Virus record (IMG/VR): IMGVR_UViG_2548877010_000018
Reading direction: 5' to 3' (one strand)
DNA: 14,811 nucleotides
From: a virus
Lineage: Duplodnaviria; Heunggongvirae; Uroviricota; Caudoviricetes
Every line of letters begins with the position of its first letter. The stretch's first letter is position 1. Below are positions 12,795-13,663 of the stretch, piece after piece. The notes under the pieces were generated by a model that saw only the letters and a program-made list of their open reading frames with translations, did no database searches and was not told the DNA's origin. The position numbers and the translations under genes are program-made.

Positions 12795-13310
12795 ATGGCG
12801 TTAACACACCGCGAACTCTGTCAGATTGCGTACAAGTTCCTTAAGCGCAACGGTTTCAAGGTTTGTTTTCATGACCGCTTTATAGCTGTAACCAGTACCG
12901 GAGAACAGCCAGATGCTATGGGATTCAGAAATTCAGCATCATGCCTGATAGAGGCGAAATGTTCTCGTGCTGACTTGTTGGCAGATAGAAAAAAGCGTTT
13001 TCGTAAAAATCCGTCTCTTGGAATGGGCGACTGGCGATTCTTTATTAGTGAGCCGGGAATTATTTCAATTGAGGATTTACCACCTGGCTGGGGATTACTT
13101 CACGTTGTTAACGGAAGAGTACGGAAAGTACATGGGTGGCCCAAGGGTAATTGCTGTTGGGGTAATCCTGACGATAAGCCATTTACTGGAAATAAGCAGG
13201 TTGAATGCGATTACATGTTGTCTGCATTAAGGCGCATGGAGTTGAGAGGGCACCTTAATGAAATATATGACGGTGTAATTGTTAATAAGAAAGAAGGAAA
13301 CGCGGCATGA
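12795..13310 (+). CDS. Hypothetical protein with PD-(D/E)xK nuclease-like motif
   Basis: ATG 12795 with SD aaggagag 5 nt upstream (track ORF begins earlier at 12765). Contains ...GEQPDAMGF...SCLIEAKCS..., a PD...ExK arrangement with ~13-aa spacing. Confidence 0.5.
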   Translation: MALTHRELCQIAYKFLKRNGFKVCFHDRFIAVTSTGEQPDAMGFRNSASCLIEAKCSRADLLADRKKRFRKNPSLGMGDWRFFISEPGIISIEDLPPGWGLLHVVNGRVRKVHGWPKGNCCWGNPDDKPFTGNKQVECDYMLSALRRMELRGHLNEIYDGVIVNKKEGNAA

Positions 13311-13663
13311 CCACTATTACCGACAAAGAACTGATTAAAGAAATCAAAGAGCGCATAGGCAGCTTGGACGTTCGAGACAATATTGAGCGCCGTGCTTATG
13401 AAATTGCACTGGCATCGCTGGAAGCAGAACCGATAGCGTGAGAATGCGGTGAAAACATAATCCTGTTTAACCCTGACACAGTTGAAGCATACGCAAAACG
13501 TGCGGAAATATCACCTAAACCACTATTCTCCGCGCCGCCAGCGCTGGTAGTGCCTGATAAGTTGCCGCGTGAATACAGAAACGGTTGGCCTCTTGCGTAT
13601 AGTGATTATGCTGAAGGCTGGAACGACTGCCGCGAAGCCATGCTTCAGGGAGATAAATCATGA
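13307..13663 (+). pseudogene. Reading frame interrupted by an in-frame TGA (44 codons, TGA, 73 codons): probable nonsense-disrupted early gene
   Basis: ATG 13307 (overlaps previous stop, ATGA) to TGA 13439-13441, then the same frame stays open for 73 more protein-like codons (ECGENIILFNPDTVEAYAKRAEISPKPLF...) to TGA 13661-13663, overlapping the next ATG. No ATG start exists for the second part. Confidence 0.4.

Follow-up and report, generated by a model that had tools for sequence, protein, structure and literature searches.

The interrupted reading frame and its surroundings

The window, by which we mean the whole stretch of phage DNA that was analyzed (14,811 nucleotides), contains on its plus strand a reading frame that opens with the ATG at 13307, continues for 44 sense codons and is stopped at codon 45 by a TGA at 13439-13441. 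Past this TGA the same frame stays open for a further 73 codons (46-118) until a second TGA at 13661-13663. The 44-residue product from ATG 13307 is MTTITDKELIKEIKERIGSLDVRDNIERRAYEIALASLEAEPIA, and the 73-codon continuation 3' of the first TGA encodes ECGENIILFNPDTVEAYAKRAEISPKPLFSAPPALVVPDKLPREYRNGWPLAYSDYAEGWNDCREAMLQGDKS; in the read-through product the residues around codon 45 are AYEIALASLEAEPIA-W-ECGENIILFNPDTVEAYAK. On the evidence of the translation, of a profile match and of public annotations, all described below, we treat the whole of 13307-13663 as one pseudogene, the 118-codon frame of an Eaa-like accessory gene of the phrog_5117 family that is broken at codon 45. The part 3' of the break (13442-13663) comprises 73 codons and the native stop. 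Both ends of the frame are shared with neighboring genes. ATG 13307 overlaps the stop codon of the upstream ORF (12765-13310) as ATGA, and the terminal TGA likewise overlaps the ATG at 13660 with which a DUF551 gene starts. The first-pass annotation of this DNA had described the 44-codon ORF, its TGA, the 73 further codons and the overlap with the next start, and the same coordinates were obtained when we derived them again.

That annotation had also stated that no ORF of 60 aa or more covers 13442-13660. Our list of ORFs contains none on either strand, the longest over this interval being one of 57 aa on the minus strand (13515-13688). Its further remark that the downstream part has no ATG of its own needs a correction. 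Codon 112, the Met of AMLQG, is an ATG in the same frame (13640), but it lies seven codons ahead of the stop, too near the end of the frame to be plausible as a start. We also considered, and rejected, separate translation of the C-terminal half from an alternative start codon. The only candidates are CTG 13463, GTG 13550 and TTG 13562, and none of them has a convincing ribosome-binding site; CTG 13463 is the start that the annotators of phage 2851 chose for the C-terminal half. The length of the open frame is a weak argument in itself. From base composition, the probability of 73 open codons is about 0.02, and 62 of the 1236 stop-to-stop segments in the six frames of the window (5%) reach at least this length. 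It is homology that decides.

The whole window matches the sbcB-integrated Stx2c-type prophages of E. coli O157:H7 (TW14359, EC4115, 644-PT8, 180-PT54, F1273). Its plus strand corresponds to the early leftward operon, with cI, an N-like gene, cIII, kil, gam, bet, exo and small genes, and then the accessory region. This continues with a DksA-like zinc-finger gene, an ead/Ea22-like gene, a P7 Upf89-like gene, the pseudogene, the DUF551 gene and a gene for 114 aa, and the strand ends with an AlpA-like gene in the position of the excisionase, followed by int. At the start of cIII, Rfam recognizes the cIII thermoregulator RNA on the plus strand (7453-7511; 88.5 bits, E 7e-21). The order of genes in the accessory region is kept in phages 1717, 2851, WGPS4 and HK022 and in the prophages of TW14359, 180-PT54 and F1273. 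Over the 801 bp around the broken gene, the window is 100% identical to phages 1717, Stx2a_F349 and Stx2a_WGPS4, and its identity to phages 2851, WGPS8, VT1-Sakai and YYZ-2008 is 99.4-99.9%.

Pfam identifies the neighbors of the pseudogene as Ead_Ea22 upstream and DUF551 downstream. The DUF551 gene occupies 13660-14010 on the plus strand (E 4.9e-10) and has a ribosome-binding site of its own, GGGAG, 7 nt upstream of its start (context AGGGAGATAAATCATGA). In many relatives, the counterpart of the pseudogene and the DUF551 gene are fused so that they encode one protein. The gene immediately upstream of the pseudogene (12765-13310, plus strand) belongs by its PHROG match to phrog_9263, is similar to P7 Upf89.0 and is intact in the window.

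Comparison with intact alleles

In phiSTEC801-Stx1a, an uninterrupted gene of 357 nt is found in the same place, with a product of 118 aa, MTTLTDKEL...EAEPIAWECGENIILF.... Alignment of the DNA puts TGG at codon 45 of phiSTEC801-Stx1a against TGA in the window, and over the 222 nt downstream (13442-13663) not a single base differs. The TW14359 prophage allows a comparison on a larger scale. Base by base, 14.1 kb of it show 10 differences from the window, and two of these fall in the gene: 13441, which is A in the window and G in TW14359, and 13364, a synonymous difference, T in the window and C in TW14359. The intact protein of 118 aa is annotated as WP_000207903.1 in the sbcB prophages of both TW14359 and 180-PT54. 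Together with H0067 of VT1-Sakai and phiSTEC801Stx1a_14, these are intact orthologues, that is, the same gene in the same position with the same frame length and with TGG at codon 45. The close relatives hold a sense codon that is one base away from the stop.

Judged from the alignments with phiSTEC801-Stx1a and TW14359 and from the allele counts given below, the lesion at 13439-13441 is shown to be a single G-to-A transition at 13441, by which TGG, the codon for Trp45, became a TGA stop. We are highly confident that the locus is a recent nonsense-mutation pseudogene of a small accessory gene in an E. coli O157:H7 Stx prophage. A change from TGG to TGA was what the first-pass annotation had favored, and the intact alleles bear it out, since at this codon they differ only by G versus A at 13441. 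The absence of decay in the downstream half can be attributed to the youth of the lesion, as only 10 differences in 14.1 kb separate the window from a sister prophage that still carries TGG. Such absence of secondary decay fits a young lesion and would also fit ongoing use of the downstream codons, a possibility to which we return.

Distribution of the two alleles

The 61-mer centered on the codon was compared with 5,426 complete E. coli genomes. Exact matches with TGA occur in 109 records and exact matches with TGG in 367. TGA is a minority allele, present in about a quarter of the E. coli records that have the locus. The phage records with TGA are 1717, 2851, Stx2a_F349, WGPS4 and WGPS6; those with TGG are VT1-Sakai, YYZ-2008, WGPS8, phi330 and phiSTEC801. 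In a collection of 15 billion proteins, the exact 44-aa product is found on 547 contigs and the exact 118-aa protein on at least 997.

These counts bear on the quality of the base at 13441. The difference concerns a single base, the kind that an error could make, and sequencing error had been named as an alternative in the first-pass annotation. It is ruled out because the allele recurs across independent assemblies: the A at 13441 is shared by five phage genomes that were deposited separately, by the 109 complete-genome records and by the 547 contigs. TGA is also the codon for selenocysteine. However, the homologues have Trp at this position and not Cys or Sec, and 3' of the UGA there is neither a significant hairpin nor anything SECIS-like. 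We give practically no credence to the idea that the TGA at 13439-13441 reflects an error of sequencing or assembly, or that it is recoded as selenocysteine.

Counts by identity band suggest that at least 94 of the 109 records with TGA would also hold an exact TGG copy elsewhere. This picture of two copies fits O157:H7 with its several related lambdoid prophages. In the five phage records with TGA, the gene lies equally distant from the same integrase, and a single origin of the TGA allele within the sbcB-type phage lineage would fit this arrangement. As the allele is fairly common, it must at least not be strongly deleterious.

Protein family and predicted structure

With Trp at codon 45, residues 1-117 of the product align with positions 1-125 of the 125 in the profile of phrog_5117 (E 5.6e-58), a PHROG family whose function is unknown; a Pfam scan of the read-through product gave no family. 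Searching a large protein database with the W45 product yielded 1619 homologues at E <= 1e-5. Most of the matches listed have lengths of 113-135 aa, with 145-207 aa for those fused to DUF551, and one large cluster of homologues carries the UniRef name 'Eaa protein'. All aligned homologues that share the middle module (ECGENIILFNPDTVEAYAKRAE...) have W in the column of the stop, while homologues with other middle modules have E, S or Y there. The question of whether homologues carry a sense codon at this position, which the first-pass annotation had raised, is answered by Trp wherever the same middle module is present. Since its own frame is interrupted by the TGA at codon 45, the locus is a pseudogene copy of a phrog_5117 family member and not a functional member.

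The family is strongly mosaic. Variable modules are linked by the conserved motifs IALASLEAEP(I/V)A, APPxxVVPD and GWNxCRxAML, apparently recombination junctions of genes in the exo-xis region. The same junction motifs connect the family to DUF551 domains in the fused versions. HK022_36 and other 'Eaa'-type mosaic proteins, among them DUF551 fusions (P22 EaA-like), share with our locus the N-terminal module, the junction motifs and the place upstream of DUF551. Unlike it, they lack an internal stop, and their modules in the middle and at the C-terminus are different ones.

For the intact protein, AlphaFold2 predicts (pLDDT 75) two helices (6-19 and 25-39) that form a helical hairpin, a small alpha/beta module (44-73) that starts with the Trp, and a C-terminal helix (100-114). 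A Foldseek search of this model against the PDB returned no match at E <= 0.001, and a profile search of PDB sequences gave a best E value of 0.06, which is not significant. A resemblance of the N-terminal hairpin to the Qua1 dimerization hairpin of Sam68 was also looked at and set aside (E 3.1, not significant).

The position of the stop relative to these modules invites another speculation. The 5' fragment (13307-13438), with its 44 sense codons, corresponds to a conserved N-terminal module, as seen from the translation of the ORF, from the model and from the DNA of HK022_36. The latter encodes 121 aa, and its DNA matches the window without a difference from codon 5 to the second base of codon 41, after which the two diverge. 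This divergence lies within about 12 nt of the position of the stop, which means that truncation leaves almost exactly the N-terminal module. The stop is thus placed almost exactly at a module junction, and the 44-aa product, as a complete N-terminal module, might keep some activity. If so, the mutation could have split the gene to give a functional short one, whose helical hairpin would work alone, for example in dimerization or as a competitor peptide, with a changed function. That the stop lies 3-4 codons past the mosaic junction speaks for this view. Two further points speak in favor: the N-terminal module recurs in phrog_660, phrog_60 and phrog_3323, and the hairpin (6-39) is predicted to be self-contained. 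Nevertheless, no natural end is seen at this place among the best 120 of the 1619 homologues or among the cluster members inspected, and intact relatives always have further modules after the N-terminal one. Genuine homologues of about 44 aa would have spoken against a broken gene, yet the entries of 42-46 aa that we inspected in the cluster of the 44-aa product are either the same allele or partial sequences at contig ends. There is also no sign of selection for truncation, and nothing significant came out of the fold search. We regard a functional short gene as very unlikely.

Translation past the stop

Another way in which the downstream half could still be used is through reading of the UGA as a sense codon. 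The first-pass annotation had listed readthrough as a less likely alternative. In its strongest form, the suggestion would be that near-cognate tRNA-Trp reads this UGA usefully, that an abundant 44-aa peptide is made along with a trace of the 118-aa protein, and that the allele is kept for this reason. Of the E. coli stop codons, UGA leaks most, and it can be decoded by near-cognate tRNAs for Trp or Cys (PMC5373646). With Trp inserted, the product would be the wild-type protein; the codons past the stop show no decay, and the allele is common. If the suggestion were true, the Stx2c-type lineage would have an accessory protein of the exo-xis region at a tuned dose or in a dominant-negative form, and this protein could affect the lysis-lysogeny decision.

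The comparative evidence points the other way. The TGA is not conserved together with the downstream module: TGG is the majority allele, it is the codon of the intact relatives, and W occupies the position in every aligned homologue with that module. As for recoding signals, the RNA of 13425-13510 does not fold better than shuffled versions of itself (z = -1.0; 28 of 200 shuffles fold as well), so that no stimulatory structure is apparent. Rfam, run over the whole window, finds only the cIII thermoregulator (7453-7511) and an ALIL pseudoknot (10015-10131), and nothing at the locus. With neither the fold, nor Rfam, nor the homologues giving a recoding signal, the readthrough proposal of the first-pass annotation finds no support. 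The undecayed state of the downstream half is explained by the youth of the lesion.

The host has to be considered too. Strains outside K-12, O157:H7 among them, have the efficient type of RF2. In ribosome profiling, products of readthrough were linked to the weak RF2 variant found in K-12, and with the B-type RF2 none could be detected (PMC5373646), which is a further argument against a useful leak in an O157:H7 prophage. We expect readthrough to be at most trace, and we see no hint of selection for it. That the TGA is maintained as a functional leaky stop is, in our opinion, hardly credible; the chance that it serves to combine trace 118-aa protein with abundant 44-aa peptide seems to us minimal.

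A comparison with a genuine case may be instructive. In phage Q-beta, programmed readthrough of UGA extends the coat protein into A1; this stop is conserved, and the phage cannot do without the extension. Our locus resembles Q-beta in having a UGA that tRNA-Trp could misread and an open in-frame extension. Unlike in Q-beta, the stop here is the minority allele of a Trp codon and shows no sign of selection or of a stimulatory signal.

Proposed consequences of the stop

If the locus is a nonsense-mutation pseudogene, as we believe, the following may be suggested. Ribosomes that start at ATG 13307 would release a 44-residue peptide, the N-terminal helical-hairpin module. The next 73 codons, for the alpha/beta module and the C-terminal helix, would go untranslated save for basal near-cognate misreading of the UGA; in practice, there would be no translation past codon 44. 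Where misreading by tRNA-Trp did occur, it would restore the wild-type residue. Coupling of termination to reinitiation at the ATGA of 13660-13663 would be lost for the DUF551 gene, which would be left with its own ribosome-binding site. On established lambda biology, little Rho-dependent polarity would be expected on a pL transcript under N antitermination.

The gene would be dispensable and usually redundant, given that most genomes with the broken copy appear to hold an intact one in another prophage, and the allele would persist by descent in a phage sublineage. Taken for what it seems to be, an ordinary single-base pseudogene of a dispensable and redundant phage accessory gene, the locus matters little, and its practical value is minor.

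Other damage in the prophage

The stop is not the only lesion in the window. A complete IS1203/IS629 element of 1310 bp (IS3 family) lies on the minus strand at 9157-10466 and splits exo into fragments at 8901-9156 and 10467-10894, with a 3-bp target duplication, AGA. The IS3-family ALIL frameshift pseudoknot, which Rfam places at 10015-10131, is within it. The insertion in exo is also present in TW14359, whereas exo is intact in phage 1717, 180-PT54 and F1273. A second copy of IS1203 (1-657) is cut by the edge of the window and lies about 50 bp past the end of the replicative helicase gene (710-2086, minus strand); in phage 1717, ISEc8 follows the helicase gene instead. IS1203 occupies other sites both in 180-PT54, where it is found within the DUF2528 gene and after cI, and in F1273. 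With IS1203 at varying places in the same prophage, the prophage can be regarded as a hot spot for IS insertion. No record with the exact IS arrangement of the window was found; owing to the IS copies, the best matches to the whole window are pieced together from several segments.

The upstream phrog_9263 gene also varies among sister prophages. In TW14359, it has T at 12950 (A in the window) and lacks bases 12951-12952, and PGAP calls it 'frameshifted' in 180-PT54 and F1273. In phage 1717, it is annotated with a length of 516 nt. Phages 2851 and phiSTEC801 also have it in a shorter form. The frameshift and the TGA occur together in F1273; TW14359 has the first without the second, and the window the second without the first. 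The IS copies and the frameshifts in sister prophages imply that accessory genes are being lost piecemeal. The single-nucleotide difference at 13441, the variable positions of IS1203 and the upstream frameshift could together be used to mark lineages of the sbcB-integrated Stx2c-type prophages in O157:H7.

The first-pass annotation had taken the stop as a mark of decay of the prophage. The other damage, namely IS1203 in exo and the second IS copy, agrees with this in part. The gene itself, however, belongs to the exo-xis accessory region, and phage 2851 has this TGA allele too and is presumably inducible and transducing. Hence the stop marks the loss of a dispensable gene and is not proof of a dead phage.

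Previous annotation of the locus

The lesion is already known in the sense that it has been flagged in GenBank and RefSeq records. In AP012538 and AP012539, the gene appears as 'hypothetical protein (pseudogene)' (Stx2c_WGPS4_05 and Stx2c_WGPS6_08). In FM180578 (phage 2851), it is given as two entries, EP2851_05 and EP2851_04, called 'N-terminal half' and 'C-terminal half'. In O157:H7 F1273 (NZ_CP038376), PGAP describes E3159_RS17725 as having an 'internal stop'. These four annotated copies (WGPS4, WGPS6, 2851 and F1273) have the same 61-mer around the stop, the same TGA and the same neighbors as the window. They show no difference from it at the locus, and the prophage copies differ only in IS1203 positions and in lesions of neighboring genes. 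In the literature on phage 2851 and Stx2c, we found no paper that discusses this ORF, and papers on the exo-xis region cover ea22 and DUF551 but not the gene considered here.

The names given to pieces of the gene are less consistent. In many NCBI records, the 44-aa fragment is called 'valyl-tRNA synthetase, partial', and some relatives go under the name 'dTDP-6-deoxy-L-hexose 3-O-methyltransferase'. For a phage protein of unknown function, both enzyme names seem to be errors of annotation that have been propagated, and fragments of the locus illustrate how such genes can be mishandled by automated annotation.
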